This document shows positions 19,287-38,401 of a stretch of 49,085 nucleotides of DNA, in pieces. Under the pieces are notes generated by a model, which ran no database searches, was not told the DNA's origin, and was given only the letters and a program-made list of their open reading frames with translations. The stretch is from a virus, in the UHGV virus genome UHGV-0323165; one strand, given 5' to 3'. Within the stretch, counting starts at the first letter, position 1. Every line of letters starts with the position of its first letter. The position numbers were made by a program, and so were the translations under genes.

Positions 19287-20096
19287 TCATCTCGTTACTT
19301 TTGAGAGAATGGCATCAGCCATAGACTCCTGCTTATGGCATTCGGCGACAAGTTCCTCAAAGAGCGGCTGAAGTTGTTCATAGGCCGCCGTTTTCTTTAT
19401 CTCCGCAACAGTATTAATTCCCTCAATCACCGTTGAGAATTTCAGTCTGGCGTAACCTCTTCCACCGCAGCGGTCACAGGCTTTCATCACCGGAACGCCC
19501 TGGCGATCGCTTTCTGCTTTGTCCAGTACCTTGCCTTTGCCATGGCAGCGACACGAATTGCTGATAATGCCCTTTCCGTTACACGGCTTGCATTTGACCC
19601 GCACCACCTCACGCGCCTGCGTCCAGCTCTCCCAGTCACTTGGGCGAACGGCCCGCGACATTTTCGACCAGTATGGCGGTTTCCCCCATGGATATGAGAC
19701 CTTGTTGGTAAAAACTTGTGCCTCTGTAAATCCGCTACCATCACAGCAATCACATTTTCGAGTGCTGGCAGCACTTCTTGAATAATCCTGGTATGCAAAA
19801 GCGCAGAGAACCTTAAGCACGCCTGACCGAGCTGATTCATCGAGTTCCGACAGTGCTCTGAATTTACCTGATAACTTACGTGCCTGCTCATAGAGTCTCT
19901 CCAGTGCTATATCTGGGCTGCTAATGCCGATTTTCGAGAGGTAAAGATCGAAACCAAAGCCGCACTTATGACCGGCAAGACCAAGCGCCGCCATAACGTC
20001 AGTGCCGGTGAGGCTGTCTGATGCGGTTGCGCGAGGAGAGTCACTGAACATCGGTGATTTAGGCGCAAAGTATTTAGCGATTGATTCGAGGTTCAT
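19287..20096 (-). CDS. putative late antiterminator (Q position) with four DnaJ-type CxxCxGxG zinc-finger repeats
   Basis: Lies between the nin genes and the late terminator and lysis genes. Repeats are CDCCDGSG, CKPCNGKG, CRCHGKGK and CDRCGGRG. Confidence 0.45.
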   Translation of the reverse strand: MNLESIAKYFAPKSPMFSDSPRATASDSLTGTDVMAALGLAGHKCGFGFDLYLSKIGISSPDIALERLYEQARKLSGKFRALSELDESARSGVLKVLCAFAYQDYSRSAASTRKCDCCDGSGFTEAQVFTNKVSYPWGKPPYWSKMSRAVRPSDWESWTQAREVVRVKCKPCNGKGIISNSCRCHGKGKVLDKAESDRQGVPVMKACDRCGGRGYARLKFSTVIEGINTVAEIKKTAAYEQLQPLFEELVAECHKQESMADAILSKVTR

Positions 20097-26565: not shown

Positions 26566-27420
26566 TCAGTCCCTCGCCCATGCAGGAATTTCAGTCTGGC
26601 CGTAGTCTTTGCCAGCAAAGTTCTCAGATACGCGAGACTGCGCGCGAGGCGGCTGCTTGGCTGTCTTTGGCTCAAACAAACCCTGCCAGCCATTCGCGAT
26701 GCTCTGGTTGATGATTTCTTCAGGCTGGTATCCGCTGCACTTGCAACGCTCAAGCAGGTTGATGGCCTGGGTTACCGTCTGCTGAGACTTAATCGGTTTC
26801 TTCAGGTCGCGACGATAATCGACCCATGACTTCCAGACTGAAACTGACAGCCATTCAGGAAGCTCGACACCAGCCGGATCGAACGGAACCGGTTTGGGGG
26901 ATTTAGGGGGTTTATTAATATTGTCTTTATTGTCTTTTGTATGTTTGTCTTTTGTGTTTACCTGATTTGGGTAAGTGTCGTTACCTGATTCGGGTAAACA
27001 TTCCTTACCTGATTCAGGTAAATTTACCTCTTTCAGGTAACGTTTATTTTCATTACCGGTTTTGGGTAATTTCACCCATTCACTAACCGTTTTGTTAATG
27101 CCGACAGAACGTCCGATTTGGGTGAATACTCCACGCTTCACTAACGAGCTTTTAGCAGCAGAGCATTTGTGCGGAAGAATGCCGGTAAGGGCAGATAACT
27201 GATCGTTACTAACCCAGTCAGCTTTTTTGTTGAAACCGTATGTTTTACGCATTACAGCCATGAAGACCAGCAACTGATGCTGAGACAATCCAGCCAGCAT
27301 GACAGCCTCCAGAAGTTCATTGGCAATACGCGTATAGCCATCATCAAGATCTGCCACGCGCGGCTCCACGACCTGCAAATCAGGCCTGATTGGTGAGATA
27401 TTGTTAATTGCTAAGTTCAT
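26566..27420 (-). CDS. replication initiator (lambda O-like) carrying internal origin iterons
   Basis: Trimmed to MNLAINN (27420), which has a GGGGAGG RBS. The coding sequence contains five 17-bp iterons. Basic Lys/Pro-rich linker and C-terminal domain. Confidence 0.7.
26958..27069. repeat. five 17-bp iterons TTACC-N7-GGTAA (putative phage origin)
   Basis: ttacctgatttgggtaa, ttacctgattcgggtaa, ttacctgattcaggtaa, ttacctctttcaggtaa and ttaccggttttgggtaa at 26958, 26981, 27005, 27024 and 27053. An AT-rich stretch follows. Confidence 0.6.
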
Positions 27421-27598
27421 CTGCAGCCTCCCCGCCTTTCTTGAAGATAATTTCGACACAAAGCAGAATGCAGTTATCGCAGATAGCAACGCCTGGACCG
27501 GCAACTATGGTTTTCACGTCGCTATCAATATTGCTTCTGTCGCAGAAAGAGCATTTATGAGTTGCGTGCTGATTTGCCTTTTCGTTTATTGCTGGCAT
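27404..27598 (-). CDS. small protein with ClpX-type C4 zinc-finger (ClpX_ZB-like) domain
   Basis: CSFCDR...[16 protein letters not shown] matches the ClpX N-terminal zinc-binding domain pattern. Start MPAINEK at 27598 has GGGAG upstream. Confidence 0.5.
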
Positions 27599-27686
27599 AC
27601 TTACTCCCGTTACTTGGCGTAACACAGTGTGATAAGGGCCTTTGAAGTGACCGCTTCAAGGGCTTTCGCTTTTTTGGTAGTACCCA

Positions 27687-28282: not shown

Positions 28283-28510
28283 TTAAGCGGCATGGTTCTC
28301 TGGGTGTGGAAACAGGTCGGGAAGATCAGGTCGAATTTCGTGTGCCTTAATCTCGCCACCAGTAGCGTTTACGATGGCTGTTACTTTTTCCGGAGATACG
28401 GAACCACCGTTAAGCCACTTGTGAACCGCTGGCTGGCTAACGCCGCAAATATCTGCGAGTCGCTTCTGGCTGCCAACGATTTCTAAAGCTCGTTGAATAA
28501 CTTTGTTCAT
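28283..28510 (-). CDS. cro: Cro-like HTH repressor
   Basis: 75 aa with an HTH (QKRLADICGVSQPAVHKWLNG), divergent from cI across the operator region. Confidence 0.7.
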   Translation of the reverse strand: MNKVIQRALEIVGSQKRLADICGVSQPAVHKWLNGGSVSPEKVTAIVNATGGEIKAHEIRPDLPDLFPHPENHAA

Positions 28511-28543: not shown

Positions 28544-28572
28544 AAGATAACCCAAGTTATGGGCATTGTCCA
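28544..28572 (-). promoter_or_regulatory. pR-like promoter (TGGACA - 17 bp - TATCTT) overlapping the OR1-like operator
   Basis: Read on the minus strand. The operator lies in the spacer and -10 element. Confidence 0.4.
28547..28560. promoter_or_regulatory. operator OR1-like (ATAACCCAAGTTAT)
   Basis: First of three ATAAC-N4-GTTAT inverted repeats spaced 24-25 bp apart. Confidence 0.55.
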
Positions 28573-28585
28573 TAACCTTTGTTAT
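28572..28585. promoter_or_regulatory. operator OR2-like (ATAACCTTTGTTAT)
   Basis: Second ATAAC-N4-GTTAT repeat. Confidence 0.55.
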
Positions 28586-28613
28586 TTTACTCTACATAAC
28601 CTCGGTTATATAT
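28585..28613 (+). promoter_or_regulatory. pRM-like weak promoter (TTTTAC - 17 bp - TATATT) giving a leaderless cI mRNA
   Basis: The -10 element ends 7 nt before the cI ATG and there is no Shine-Dalgarno sequence. Confidence 0.3.
28596..28609. promoter_or_regulatory. operator OR3-like (ATAACCTCGGTTAT)
   Basis: Third ATAAC-N4-GTTAT repeat, adjacent to the cI start. Confidence 0.55.
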
Positions 28614-28620
28614 TGATAAG

Positions 28621-29310
28621 ATGAAAACATTTGCAGAACGACTGAACGCGGCTATGTCGGCCGCTGACATATCTCAAGGACAGTTGGCTGATAAAGTCGG
28701 TATATCCCAGCCTGCAATTCAAAAGATGACGTCAGGTAAAACGAGCGGCAGCCGTAAGATGGTCGAGCTAGCTCATGCTCTGGGTGTAAGGCCGGAATGG
28801 CTTAGTTCTGGAGTGGGGGAAATGCGGATTGATGGTAATGTGCCATCGGCGGCCCAACCGGTCTCGGAAACAATTGATGTCTTTCGGGTTGATGTTTTAG
28901 ACCTGAAAGTAAGCGCTGGTCCGGGGTCTTTTATGATTTCTGAATTTGTTGAGGTCCTGCATGCTATTGAGTTCACAACTGAGCATGCCAGATCTCTTTT
29001 CGGGAACCGCACTCAAAATGATGTGAAGGTGATGACCGTAGACGGTGACAGCATGTGCCCAACGATTCAGTCGGGAGATCGCCTGTTCTTTGACGTTTCG
29101 GTGAGGAACTTCAAGGTTGACGGAGTATACGCATTTGTCTTCGGGCAGCACTTCCATGTCAAGCGCCTGCAGATGCAGGGCCTGCAGTTAGCCGTGCTTT
29201 CAGATAATCCGGCTTACAAAGATTGGTATGTGACAGAAGAAAATCAGGACCAGCTATACATCATGGGTAAAGCGCTTATTCACGAATCGATAGCTTACAA
29301 CAAACTGTAG
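28621..29310 (+). CDS. cI: CI repressor (HTH plus S24 LexA-like peptidase domain)
   Basis: N-terminal HTH (QGQLADKVGISQPAIQKM), Ser in GDSM and Lys in VKRL of the C-terminal domain. Confidence 0.85.
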   Translation: MKTFAERLNAAMSAADISQGQLADKVGISQPAIQKMTSGKTSGSRKMVELAHALGVRPEWLSSGVGEMRIDGNVPSAAQPVSETIDVFRVDVLDLKVSAGPGSFMISEFVEVLHAIEFTTEHARSLFGNRTQNDVKVMTVDGDSMCPTIQSGDRLFFDVSVRNFKVDGVYAFVFGQHFHVKRLQMQGLQLAVLSDNPAYKDWYVTEENQDQLYIMGKALIHESIAYNKL

Positions 29311-29390: not shown

Positions 29391-29774
29391 ATGGAAGAAT
29401 CAGATCAGGAAAAACGAGAGCGCGAGCTAATGGAGGTGCTTTGGCGAAAATTTAGAGCGCTATCACCTGAATTACTGTCTCAATTCCTAGCAGAACGAGG
29501 CGTTCCAATCGTCTCATGCCCTATATGTGGCAGTGCAGATATGGCCGTACCACAGGCCAGCGAGCAAATTTATGACGGAGATAAGCCGACTGGAGAATGG
29601 TTTACGTATGTAAACCCATCAAAAGTAAGCTCATTTGGGTTTGAACCATTACACTCCTTGCTTCAGTACAACTACCGCATAATTTGCAAAAATTGCGGAT
29701 ATGAAAACAGATTCTCTGCGCACCCAGTTCTATCGTGGCTGGAGAAGAATGACAAAAAAACTAATGCCGAGTAG
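29391..29774 (+). CDS. hypothetical zinc-ribbon protein (CPICG...CKNCG), first gene of the rex-position cassette
   Basis: 127 aa. GAGGG RBS. No terminator after cI. Lower GC than the flanks. Confidence 0.55.
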   Translation: MEESDQEKRERELMEVLWRKFRALSPELLSQFLAERGVPIVSCPICGSADMAVPQASEQIYDGDKPTGEWFTYVNPSKVSSFGFEPLHSLLQYNYRIICKNCGYENRFSAHPVLSWLEKNDKKTNAE

Positions 29775-29858
29775 ACTATGAATCAGCACAAAGAAGATGC
29801 AACAGTCGTCTGGGATCGTTTTCCACAACATGGTGGCGGTAGCGGCGGAGGTGGTGAG

Positions 29859-30107
29859 ATGGAAAGTAGAGTTGCAAGACTGGAATCCGATATTGAGTAC
29901 ATAAAGCGCGATGTATCTGATATTAAATCGGATATTAAGTCTATTGATTCCAGGTTAGCAACAATTGAAACAGCAATTGGCTCGCTTAAAACCACCATTA
30001 AAGCCTCCGCTGTTGTCATCACAGTGGTTTTCTCTTTTTGCGCATATATTTTTGGTAATTATGTAGCCAAAATACTTGATGCACTAAATGGGTTGGTTCT
30101 CAAGTAA
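29859..30107 (+). CDS. small coiled-coil protein with C-terminal transmembrane helix (XhlA-like architecture), second gene of the cassette
   Basis: Start taken at MESRVARL, which is preceded by GGAGGTGGTGAG. The ORF track begins at 29778, which would add a GGGSGGGG N-terminus. The C-terminal hydrophobic helix is VVITVVFSFCAYIFGNYV. Confidence 0.5.
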   Translation: MESRVARLESDIEYIKRDVSDIKSDIKSIDSRLATIETAIGSLKTTIKASAVVITVVFSFCAYIFGNYVAKILDALNGLVLK

Positions 30108-30114
30108 CCCCGGC

Positions 30115-30136
30115 CCCGGCATTGCCGGGTTTTTTA
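30115..30136 (+). terminator. rho-independent terminator ending the cI cassette operon
   Basis: cccggc-att-gccggg hairpin followed by TTTTTT. Confidence 0.65.
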
Positions 30137-30331
30137 ATTTCCTTTCCGCGCTATCTCAGCGGCATCCCTGTTAATACCCTTCCCTATCACGTTTCCTGTT
30201 TCCTTCCGGTACTGCTTCAGCTTGTCGATGATGTTTTGCTGGGTCATAGGTAAATCAGCCAGTGACAATTCCATCACCGCCCGCCCCATCGCCTGAATTT
30301 TCATGCTTATACGCTCTTCATCCAGAACCAT
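30134..30331 (-). CDS. hypothetical small protein convergent with the cI operon
   Basis: Start MVLDEERI at 30331 has AGGAGGG 6 nt upstream. About 65 aa. The ORF track begins at 30370. Confidence 0.4.
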   Translation of the reverse strand: MVLDEERISMKIQAMGRAVMELSLADLPMTQQNIIDKLKQYRKETGNVIGKGINRDAAEIARKGN

Positions 30332-30442
30332 GCACATCCCTCCTGCTGTTTTTTTAAGCATAGCACTCATGATTTACAAAAATAAATTCATTTAGTTATC
30401 ATTGATTTATAACTTATGTGATTGATATTATAAATTAGGTTA

Positions 30443-30471
30443 TTGCCATCACTCATAACTAAGGTTATCTT
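30443..30471 (+). promoter_or_regulatory. pL-like promoter (TTGCCA - 17 bp - TATCTT) overlapping a fourth operator copy
   Basis: Same arrangement as the pR-like promoter. Reads rightward away from cI. Confidence 0.4.
30455..30468. promoter_or_regulatory. operator OL-like (ATAACTAAGGTTAT)
   Basis: Same ATAAC-N4-GTTAT inverted repeat as the three OR sites. Confidence 0.5.
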
Positions 30472-30947
30472 TAACCCATCGAAACGAAACATCGACAGCT
30501 GAGCGAAGTTAGCCAGCGGCGGACAGCAAGTCGCCTGCTCATTAAGAATTCAGTCAAGCAGCAAATCACCCGGAGCGCTCCTGGCAAATTGAAATGGCGC
30601 CCAATGGGATTGAGGCAGGTGTGTAACGCGTGGCGGGTATAGCACACGAAGAGGACTCCGCACCGGAATGGTTTGCTGCTCAGTTCCCGAACATCGGGGA
30701 AGCTTCAGTTGGAATGTTTTGGGATTGGATGAATGCGCAGGCTGATGCGCTGGGTGACGGAACGGGCAGAGCGAAACTGATAACCCGCCGTCACTGGAAT
30801 TGACCGGACTCGGATTAGCCGAGACAGGGCCGAATGACAAAAGTCACCACCCGCTGCGGGGCCAGCAGTAAGCCGGAGTTCAGCACCGGCCATCCAATCA
30901 CCAAAGCATTTCTCCCGCATCAGCGGGTAACGACAGAGGGTAAGTCA

Positions 30948-31616
30948 ATGATTCGTCTTAACAACGAAATTAAAAATCAGCTATGCCATAACCTGCTTCT
31001 CGCATCCCCATTGTTTGAGAAAGCGAAAGCTGCGGTTAATGAGAGGGCGAAAATTGTTGAAGAAATTCGACAGGCATTGCTCAAGCAAGAAAACACTAGC
31101 GATGAGCAAATAACTAAGGCTCGGGAAGATTTCAAAGATAACTCCTTCATCAAGATGCAGGTCGGCGCTAAAACTGCAATTTTAAAGGTCATTATCAATG
31201 GTGAGTATCACGAATTAGCCAGGAACGGTTTGGATCATCGCTATCGCCACCGTGGAAAACATATTGGTAAGCACGATCTTGAAAGCGACCTATTCTTCGG
31301 CGCTTCCTTCGCGCCTGTAGTTGATTGGGGTTATGTTCCTGAAAGTTACAGCACGCTGAAGAAGGTTGGAAAATTACACGACCGACTCACTGAATCGACG
31401 GTAACCATCAACGTTCTTTACGATGAAGTTGACGCCTTCCAATTGCAGGTTAAGGGTGCTCTAACCAAAGTCTCAACCGTTAAAAAACTGGCTGAGATGT
31501 GGCCTGAGGCAGTGCCATATTTGCCTGAGGTGCAGCGCCGTGAAGCGACCAGCACCGCACTTGCCATTCCCGTTGAAACACTAAACGCCCTTTGCGGCAT
31601 ACCAAAGAATGAATGA
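30948..31616 (+). CDS. hypothetical protein, first gene of the early-left operon
   Basis: Start MIRLNNEI has GAGGG 7 nt upstream. About 222 aa. Followed by a terminator. Confidence 0.5.
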   Translation: MIRLNNEIKNQLCHNLLLASPLFEKAKAAVNERAKIVEEIRQALLKQENTSDEQITKAREDFKDNSFIKMQVGAKTAILKVIINGEYHELARNGLDHRYRHRGKHIGKHDLESDLFFGASFAPVVDWGYVPESYSTLKKVGKLHDRLTESTVTINVLYDEVDAFQLQVKGALTKVSTVKKLAEMWPEAVPYLPEVQRREATSTALAIPVETLNALCGIPKNE

Positions 31617-31637
31617 CCCGCCACGGCGGGTTTTTTA
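31617..31637 (+). terminator. rho-independent terminator (tL1-like)
   Basis: cccgc-cacg-gcggg hairpin followed by TTTTTT. Confidence 0.6.
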
Positions 31638-31780
31638 TCGGCCATACCTCAGCAACTTCACAGAGGTTGCTTAGTTATGACAACCGGCGGCCATCCACCG
31701 CCACTATTTTTGTATCTTCGCACAAGCGCAGAAGTCTTGTATTAACCGTTCCGTTCGCCGCGATAAGGCCAAGAGGATTT

Positions 31781-38313: not shown

Positions 38314-38401
38314 AGGCACTAATCACCAGGTCGCTATCGCGGCCTTTTTTATTGCTGGCGTTCACCTTCAACCGAATTAACAGACAGTTCGCGGAGTGAC
38401 T

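Follow-up and report, generated by a model that had tools for sequence, protein, structure and literature searches.

A conserved boxA-headed structured RNA in the early-left leader of a lambdoid prophage, and its possible role in antitermination

Two solutions to early antitermination are known in lambdoid phages: N protein with nut sites, and put RNA. The DNA analysed here, UHGV virus genome UHGV-0323165 (49,085 nucleotides (nt), hereinafter designated the window), is a lambdoid prophage with its left operon read on the + strand, and it raises the question of how a polymerase leaving the early-left promoter passes a strong terminator when neither solution is apparent. The pL-like promoter (30443-30471, +; sigma-70-like, TTGCCA-17-TATCTT) corresponds in alignment to the 'putative pL' annotated in HK639 and to the -35/-10 elements of phi80 pL, and is overlapped by three ATAAC-N4-GTTAT repressor operators found by pattern search in the left operator OL (30409-30468). 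Its transcript probably starts near 30478, which would leave a leader of about 470 nt before the ATG of the first gene at 30948. A preliminary description of the sequence had proposed such a long leader devoid of a credible gene, a strong intrinsic terminator after the first gene and no N-like antiterminator gene, and all three statements hold. We find that this leader is a mosaic of conserved RNA modules. The one at its core is a boxA-headed structured RNA that is real, conserved and covarying, always lies promoter-proximal, and is interchangeable between phages with the put and nutL cassettes.

The RNA core (30536-30701) consists of boxA, an 8-nt gap, a multi-helix domain of about 125-150 nt and a terminal hairpin. 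The boxA-like element (UGCUCAUUAAGAA, 30536-30548, +) forms the 5' limit of the mobile RNA module: across unrelated upstream contexts conservation starts exactly at boxA, and all subtypes of the RNA begin with it. The window boxA (GCTCATTAAGA) agrees with the consensus GYTCTTTAANA at 10 of 11 positions (PMC5725501) and is by sequence a putative NusB/NusE site; three sites in the window lie within two mismatches of the rrn boxA, and only this one is in the early region. The multi-helix domain (30557-30680, +), delineated by folds and a covariance model, is closed by a helix between 30557-30568 and 30669-30680 and contains inner helices and hairpins at about 30570-30582/30652-30666, 30599-30616 and 30619-30647; within this larger fold is a stem of three pairs, capped by a conserved A-rich loop (AAAnnGAAA). 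The terminal hairpin (UUCCCGA-ACA-UCGGGGA, 30684-30700, +) is helix 9 of the covariance model. One stem listed in the preliminary description, GGAGCGCTCC (30572-30581), does not form a separate hairpin: in the conserved fold its bases pair with a strand farther downstream, at about 30652-30661.

The covariance model (hereinafter designated R1) comprises 25 sequences and 44 pairs from two relative subtypes, the window's own subtype being excluded. R1 matches the window over its full length (30536-30701, model positions 1-177) with 68.4 bits and an expect value (E) of 2.7e-17; this is the sole significant match in 49 kb, the next best scoring 13.5 bits and being merely a terminator. When 86 matches (74 distinct sequences) are fitted to the model, 97.6% of the cells form standard pairs, compared with 30-44% when the pairing partners are slid. 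Changes on both sides occur in 17 of the 44 pairs and in all seven closing-helix pairs, several of which show three pair types, and helix 9 has compensatory changes in three of its six pairs. The minimum-free-energy folds of the window subtype and of a divergent subtype, each predicted separately, agree. Rfam 15 returned no family for the whole window at gathering scores, for the leader to E 10, or for six loci from an unrelated phage group with the same RNA; matches to isrK and mir-320 were at chance level only. A scan for transfer and transfer-messenger RNA found none, and the prophage small RNAs Pas, AgvB and AsxR are unrelated, lying in late regions or being already in Rfam. We are therefore highly confident that the leader contains a conserved boxA-headed structured RNA, representing a family of about 165 nt that is absent from Rfam and of which we found no description in the literature searched.

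The family was defined from IMG/VR, GTDB and Escherichia coli loci. In the window subtype, 30471-30706 is 98-100% identical across loci, after which similarity ends abruptly, a few bases past the terminal hairpin. The divergent subtype has the same predicted architecture, with GAGUGAC/GUCACUC as closing helix where the window has GCAGCAAAUC/GGUUUGCUGC. A third subtype occurs in another group of temperate phages, which have VapE-, DUF2800-, DUF2815- and DNA-polymerase-type genes. It is found, for example, in E. coli IAI1 (2753105-2753279) and in vB_EcoM-606R2 and related phages; about 105 of 5,426 complete E. coli genomes carry it. Its boxA (GCUCUUUAACAA) is perfect, matching the consensus at 11 of 11 positions, and follows by about 35-45 nt the promoter adjoining the repressor gene, with no 5' leader block of the kind described below. 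Altogether, 116 copies of the RNA follow immediately after promoter/operator regions beside repressor genes, about 21 such contexts being distinguishable. In the unrelated phage group (L158, L160, L172 and others), a terminator-like hairpin (e.g. AAAGGCUUCGGGCCUUUUACU) lies about 20 nt past the RNA; it could mark where a discrete RNA of about 230 nt ends, or be the first terminator that has to be overridden.

The window transcript opens with a shared 5' leader block (30476-30535, +), which was delimited by alignment with phi80 and HK639 and is predicted to fold into three small hairpins (30479-30495, 30498-30517 and 30518-30535), the third of them confined to boxA-type leaders. The first ~60 nt of the transcript are near-identical in phi80, and in HK639 likewise up to about +48. 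Pattern scans detected the block in at least 119 IMG/VR contigs and 28 GTDB species genomes, from genera including Enterobacter, Citrobacter, Kosakonia, Siccibacter and Trabulsiella. Its first ~48 nt (30476-30523, CCAUCGAAACGAAACAUCGACAGCUGAGCGAAGUUAGCCAGCGGCG) are almost unchanged in put-type and boxA-type leaders behind many different immunity regions, and are missing from the unrelated phage group that has the same boxA-headed RNA.

After this block, each leader has one of several mutually exclusive cassettes. These are the HK639/HK022-type put RNA, which has no boxA and is annotated 'putL-like antiterminator RNA' in HK639; the phi80-type cassette, boxA plus about 160 nt in two divergent subtypes, annotated 'nutL regulatory signal' in GenBank M11919; the window type, boxA plus about 155 nt; and at least two others. 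Our statements on function in HK639 and phi80 rest on GenBank feature tables; King et al. (2011) reportedly tested the HK639 putL-like RNA. Structure is evident in the phi80-type cassette as well: between its two subtypes, 7 of 29 pairs show compensatory change. R1, used to ask whether this cassette, the third type or put might be distant members of the window family, matched none of them, and they are treated here as different RNAs in the same slot. The cassette is followed by a junction motif, variable sequence, a portable block with a hairpin and a Shine-Dalgarno sequence, and a highly variable first gene, for which phi80 'N', Nmad5, DUF551, DUF2528, zinc-binding and HNH-like proteins were observed. 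The terminator module beyond it is shared by homology among 117 loci, which represent every cassette class and include phi80 and HK639, the latter with two annotated terminators. Since cassettes are exchanged while downstream genes and terminators stay the same, the cassettes are most simply read as functional alternatives.

The segment behind the window cassette (30707-30895, +) holds the junction motif GGAATGTTTTGGG (30711-30723), a hairpin (30735-30750) and a variable spacer, and differs among loci that have an identical RNA module. The junction motif reappears directly after each cassette type, namely put, phi80-type, window type and the third boxA type. The hairpin (GCGCAGGCUGAUGCGC) shows a compensatory change at locus L086 (GAGC...GCUC), which favours an RNA feature over an overlapping reading frame of 29 amino acids (aa). 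The portable 3' block (30896-30947, +) contains the hairpin CCCGC-AUCA-GCGGG (30914-30927) and the Shine-Dalgarno sequence GAGGG (30936-30940); the last 55 nt ahead of the window ATG are identical to the sequence just upstream of phi80 'N'. In all classes, most leaders have this block directly ahead of first genes that are unrelated to one another, and its appearance suggests a junction for recombination or a module for translation initiation. At L128, L129, L042 and other loci the cassette is followed by an alternative junction, with a strong Shine-Dalgarno sequence, a three-codon mini-open reading frame (AGAGGAGTGATTCCA ATG AAG CAC TAA) and then a conserved hairpin region, which could be a translational coupling or regulatory device.

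Besides an HK022 put-type RNA, the preliminary description had offered two protein candidates for the antiterminator: a tiny product of the leader, or the 222-aa first gene itself (30948-31616, +). The latter does occupy the position of N, and the leader does contain the 29-aa open reading frame (ORF). The 222-aa protein is, however, a full-length member of the Nmad5 family (Pfam PF18757; 106.3 bits against a cut-off of 27, E 2.9e-30; residues 2-219 on profile positions 1-206 of 206), named in RefSeq 'Nmad5 family putative nucleotide modification protein'. An identical gene follows the put-type leader of locus L013 and the window RNA stands ahead of many unrelated first genes; the 222-aa gene is variable cargo. 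The start at 30948 is supported by the GAGGG Shine-Dalgarno sequence 7 nt upstream and by the Pfam match from residue 2; an in-frame upstream ATG at 30834 would lengthen the product to 260 aa. As for the leader, the 'MFWDW...' ORF, previously given as 39 aa, is 29 aa long from ATG 30714 (30714-30803) or 57 aa from GTG 30630, and the statement that the leader has no ORF of 60 aa or more needs amending, in that the minus strand has ORFs at 30550-30840 (96 aa) and 30705-30920 (71 aa). A PHROG search with the leader ORFs of both strands, including the 96-aa, 71-aa, 29-aa and 260-aa readings, gave no match. No leader ORF is conserved among relatives past the nucleotides they share or for more than about 6 codons, and small arginine-rich ORFs are absent. 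That the first gene or a leader peptide is the antiterminator thus appears highly improbable.

Is there, then, anything to antiterminate? The first gene is followed by a tL1-like intrinsic terminator (GACCCGCCACGGCGGGTT plus T-run, 31615-31638, +) that overlaps its stop codon, and then by a second, weaker terminator-like hairpin (31686-31702) with a T-run (31686-31710, +), the counterpart of the second terminator annotated in HK639 and of the phi80 tL1B region. By PHROGs and Pfam the left operon encodes Nmad5, two small unknown proteins, Kil, a 358-aa unknown protein and a Gam-like protein; the RecT-like and exonuclease-like labels of later genes come from ORFs and the preliminary description. 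A sister prophage in E. coli YPE10 is annotated in RefSeq with repressor, 576 unannotated nt, Nmad5 and kil, on to RecE/RecT and int. The weakness of the second terminator would fit a leaky arrangement in vivo, and promoter-like matches downstream, though fewer than in shuffled sequence, would fit transcription of the downstream genes from promoters of their own; in either case no dedicated antitermination would be needed and the leader RNA would be conserved for unrelated reasons. We consider this improbable, because the first terminator is canonical (7-pair stem, 5 G-C pairs, 6-T run), the terminator module is kept in the 117 loci, including HK639 with a put-like RNA annotated upstream, and more terminator-like sites, at 38328 and 39603, stand on the way to int. 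At one rearranged locus (L210, about 854-873), a tL1-like terminator and its 3' flank are joined to the middle of a cassette (from GGCGCCCAAUGGG on), with boxA and the 5' half missing.

An N-like gene elsewhere in the window, which the preliminary description named as a finding that would overturn its view, was sought and not found. Searches of the window by tblastn with lambda N, phi80 N and HK022 Nun yielded none. PHROGs and Pfam applied to the early-left and early-right genes gave CII-like, NinB, NinI-like and NinG/Rap proteins in the right operon and, as the only antiterminator, a Q-like protein (19287-20096); the RefSeq annotation of the YPE10 sister prophage likewise has a Q-type antiterminator only. 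A scan of both early operons for small ORFs with an arginine-rich N terminus returned only out-of-frame artefacts and the CII-like protein. Among protein families up to 7 kb downstream none tracks cassette type, and no protein is consistently common to the window and the unrelated phages with the same RNA.

These results bear on the possibility that the element is a nut-type site served by a phage N-like RNA-binding protein, either one diverged past recognition or one provided by another prophage, the structured domain being an elaborate equivalent of boxB. In its favour, boxA is a hallmark of nut sites, the short stem with the conserved A-rich loop recalls boxB loops, and the flanks of the leader are homologous to those of phi80, for which GenBank annotates 'nutL' and 'N protein'. 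The likeness to phi80 is close: the 5' block, the hairpin before boxA, the position of boxA, the junction motif and the 55-nt pre-gene block are homologous and in blocks near-identical, both phages have a terminator directly after the first gene, and both cassettes are covarying structured RNAs. The ~160-nt domain after the phi80 boxA is nevertheless a different RNA, undetected by the covariance model and not alignable to the window, and phi80 has an 'N' that the window lacks. Moreover, phi80 'N' (L001, 3239-3535) occurs only in phi80 and four identical IMG/VR contigs; neither the remaining phi80-type leaders (about 50 distinct sequences) nor any other leader of the group has it, a confinement that casts doubt on its general need for this leader type. 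Small basic proteins do follow the leader directly in some sister loci: in HK225 (L206 2297-2509, HK225_041) a phi80-like pL and phi80-type cassette precede a 70-aa basic protein (MTQTYIPAC...KKRQKPRKQAI), and at L052 a 68-aa ORF starting MAQANKQARRRR (MAQANKQARRRRISALCRR) comes after a put-type leader; both may be unrecognised N/Nun-like proteins. Given that the window has no N, Nun or phi80-N homologue and no arginine-rich ORF, that the first gene after the RNA is highly variable and that no protein co-varies with cassette type, we regard dependence on such a protein as unlikely.

Compared with lambda nut, the window element shares the promoter-proximal position, the 5' boxA and service of the left operon across terminators, with host Nus factors implied. 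It differs in having no N, no simple 15-nt boxB beside boxA and no nutR, and its RNA is about ten times larger than lambda boxB; it is not a classical nut site. The 'Nus-dependent non-lambdoid' phages of the mEpimmI group, considered as a possible precedent, have an N-like Gp17 and ordinary nut sites and are a different system (PMC11893012).

The put RNAs provide the other comparison. HK022 putL/putR and the HK639 putL-like RNA occupy the same slot, and sister phages share with the window pL, the first ~48 nt, the 3' block and the terminator module. Like the window element, they belong to phages without an N gene and are folded RNAs made first from pL; HK639 is annotated, as we find for the window, with a single copy in the left operon. 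By contrast, the put fold has two stems in about 65-70 nt, while the window element has a multi-branch domain of about 125 nt plus a hairpin, and boxA heads the window element but is absent from put-type leaders. The put core sequences (AAACCAUGCGUCGG; GGCGGGYUCAGGA) have no match in the leader beyond chance. Put RNA is characterised by its contact with the β' zinc-binding domain of RNA polymerase and by needing no Nus factors. Its action requires no dedicated protein factor in trans (PMC9378689); the boxA of the window element points to Nus involvement and argues for a factor requirement unlike that of put. The signature sequences and fold having failed to match, the element is not a member of the put family. 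The earlier suggestion of an HK022 put-type cis-acting RNA therefore survives in part: a covarying structured RNA does occupy the HK639 putL slot, but it has boxA, a larger fold of about 150 nt and none of the put signatures. The comparison with putL and nut sites that had been recommended is similarly divided, the promoter-proximal slot and boxA being shared and the put sequences and fold, a simple boxB and nutR being absent.

A boxA that works without any phage protein has precedents in rrn leaders and clustered regularly interspaced short palindromic repeats (CRISPR) arrays, which use Nus factors and SuhB and resemble the window in a near-consensus boxA, a long untranslated RNA downstream and no dedicated protein. 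The rrn boxB precedes boxA, as does the window hairpin at 30518-30535, which is however missing in the subtype without the 5' block; a GU-rich GGUGUGU downstream in the window recalls rrn boxC but is not conserved in the family. Two differences stand out. The rrn and CRISPR leaders have no counterpart of the large structured domain, and these systems counter Rho-dependent termination, whereas the window transcript must pass an intrinsic terminator. Nus factors without N have been reported to counter Rho-dependent termination only (PMC5725501), so an extra RNA element would be needed for the terminator at 31615-31638, and the conserved domain is the obvious candidate, perhaps acting like N-boxB or like the polymerase-bound put RNA (PMC9378689). 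The 3' part of the leader is C-rich, G-poor and unstructured and from its composition is a plausible Rho loading site, which would give boxA a second reason to be there.

Taken together, the comparisons place the element best among cis-acting early antitermination leaders, as a boxA-headed structured RNA family. By analogy with these systems, we propose that leader 30536-30701 is a cis-acting, Nus-assisted processive antitermination RNA that is independent of phage proteins, a proposal to which we assign about an even chance. Antitermination activity, Nus dependence and independence from phage proteins would then come about as follows. Once the repressor leaves OL and pL fires, the first structured RNA to emerge would be boxA, followed by the closed domain and the terminal hairpin. 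BoxA would recruit host NusB/NusE, with NusA, NusG and SuhB, to the elongating polymerase, and the folded domain would replace N-boxB of lambda or the put RNA of HK022 and HK639 by making a persistent contact that also suppresses intrinsic terminators. The modified polymerase could pass the untranslated leader, the Nmad5 gene, the terminators at 31615-31710 and the sites at 38328 and 39603, and so reach kil, gam, recT, exo, xis and int. In its most specific form, a self-sufficient 'protein-free nut' whose boxA recruits Nus factors and whose own fold replaces N-boxB, with resistance to both intrinsic and Rho-dependent terminators, the proposal is a tentative one that we think has a reasonable but smaller chance of being right.

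The RNA could instead have a different job in which intrinsic terminators are not suppressed, such as shielding of the long untranslated leader from Rho only, control of first-gene translation, sensing of a ligand or factor, or release as a processed small RNA. When N is lacking, boxA/Nus complexes affect Rho-dependent events and are able to repress translation (PMC5725501), the candidate Rho loading site is at hand, and the close terminator-like hairpin of the unrelated group resembles an aptamer-plus-terminator arrangement or a small-RNA gene. In the window, however, no terminator stands directly after the RNA, no alternative pairing of the RNA with the downstream terminator is obvious, and no Rfam riboswitch or small-RNA family matches. 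The one-for-one swap with a known antiterminator RNA, put, ahead of the same terminator module also tells against such a role, which we judge to be rather unlikely.

Several observations weigh against the proposed antitermination RNA. The window boxA deviates from the consensus at one position (T5A). Covariation was counted after the alignment had been fitted to the model, and it draws on a small number of deep lineages (three subtypes and a few divergent variants); the folding energy of the core is unremarkable (z -1.74; z -3.66 for the whole leader), so that thermodynamic support for leader structure, taken alone, is modest. Antitermination itself is argued from position and analogy. The annotation of phi80 presents its homologous leader as an N-dependent nut site, and the hairpin within about 20 nt past the RNA in the unrelated phage group also fits a discrete small RNA. 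Finally, the RNA is a single copy with no nutR/putR counterpart, although the HK639 and phi80 annotations show none either; covariance-model, boxA and repeat searches found no second copy of the leader, boxA or the RNA on the pR side.

The surroundings of the leader are those of a lambdoid immunity region. A cI-like repressor gene (28621-29310, +) and cro (28283-28510, -) flank three further ATAAC-N4-GTTAT operators at the right operator OR (28547-28609); with the three at OL, these make six in the whole window, compared with 0.77 expected by chance. In the rexA/rexB position 3' of cI lie two genes (29391-30129, +), ended by a terminator at 30115-30129, which encode a 127-aa product with a weak zinc-ribbon hint and a 109-aa product with weak coiled-coil/XhlA-like matches and a hydrophobic C terminus, and which are likely accessory genes expressed in the lysogen. 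Between that terminator and pL, a 78-aa gene (30134-30370, -) is oriented divergently from pL, toward the cI operon; it belongs to phrog_3975 (unknown function) and its DNA is 96% identical to HK639_46, and phi80 also has homologous DNA, without annotation there. A 73-aa Cys-rich protein (27404-27625, -), encoded between the CII-like and replication genes, has a PHROG 'protease' match (E 4e-11) and by eye may resemble a ClpX-type zinc finger.

The leader points to a further, widespread and unannotated solution to early antitermination beside the two familiar ones. If the 'protein-free nut' is correct, it would be a third early antitermination mechanism in temperate enterobacterial phages, next to N/nut and put, and one of several interchangeable RNA cassettes (the window and phi80 types plus at least two others) whose recombination is independent of both immunity region and cargo gene. 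If the function is as we propose, an RNA can replace N and yet still use Nus factors, the element would be a compact, portable antitermination part, and it would explain the expression of recombination genes, kil and int/xis in many 'N-less' prophages. Even with another function, the element adds to a closely studied genomic position a covarying RNA family, about 165 nt long, that is new.

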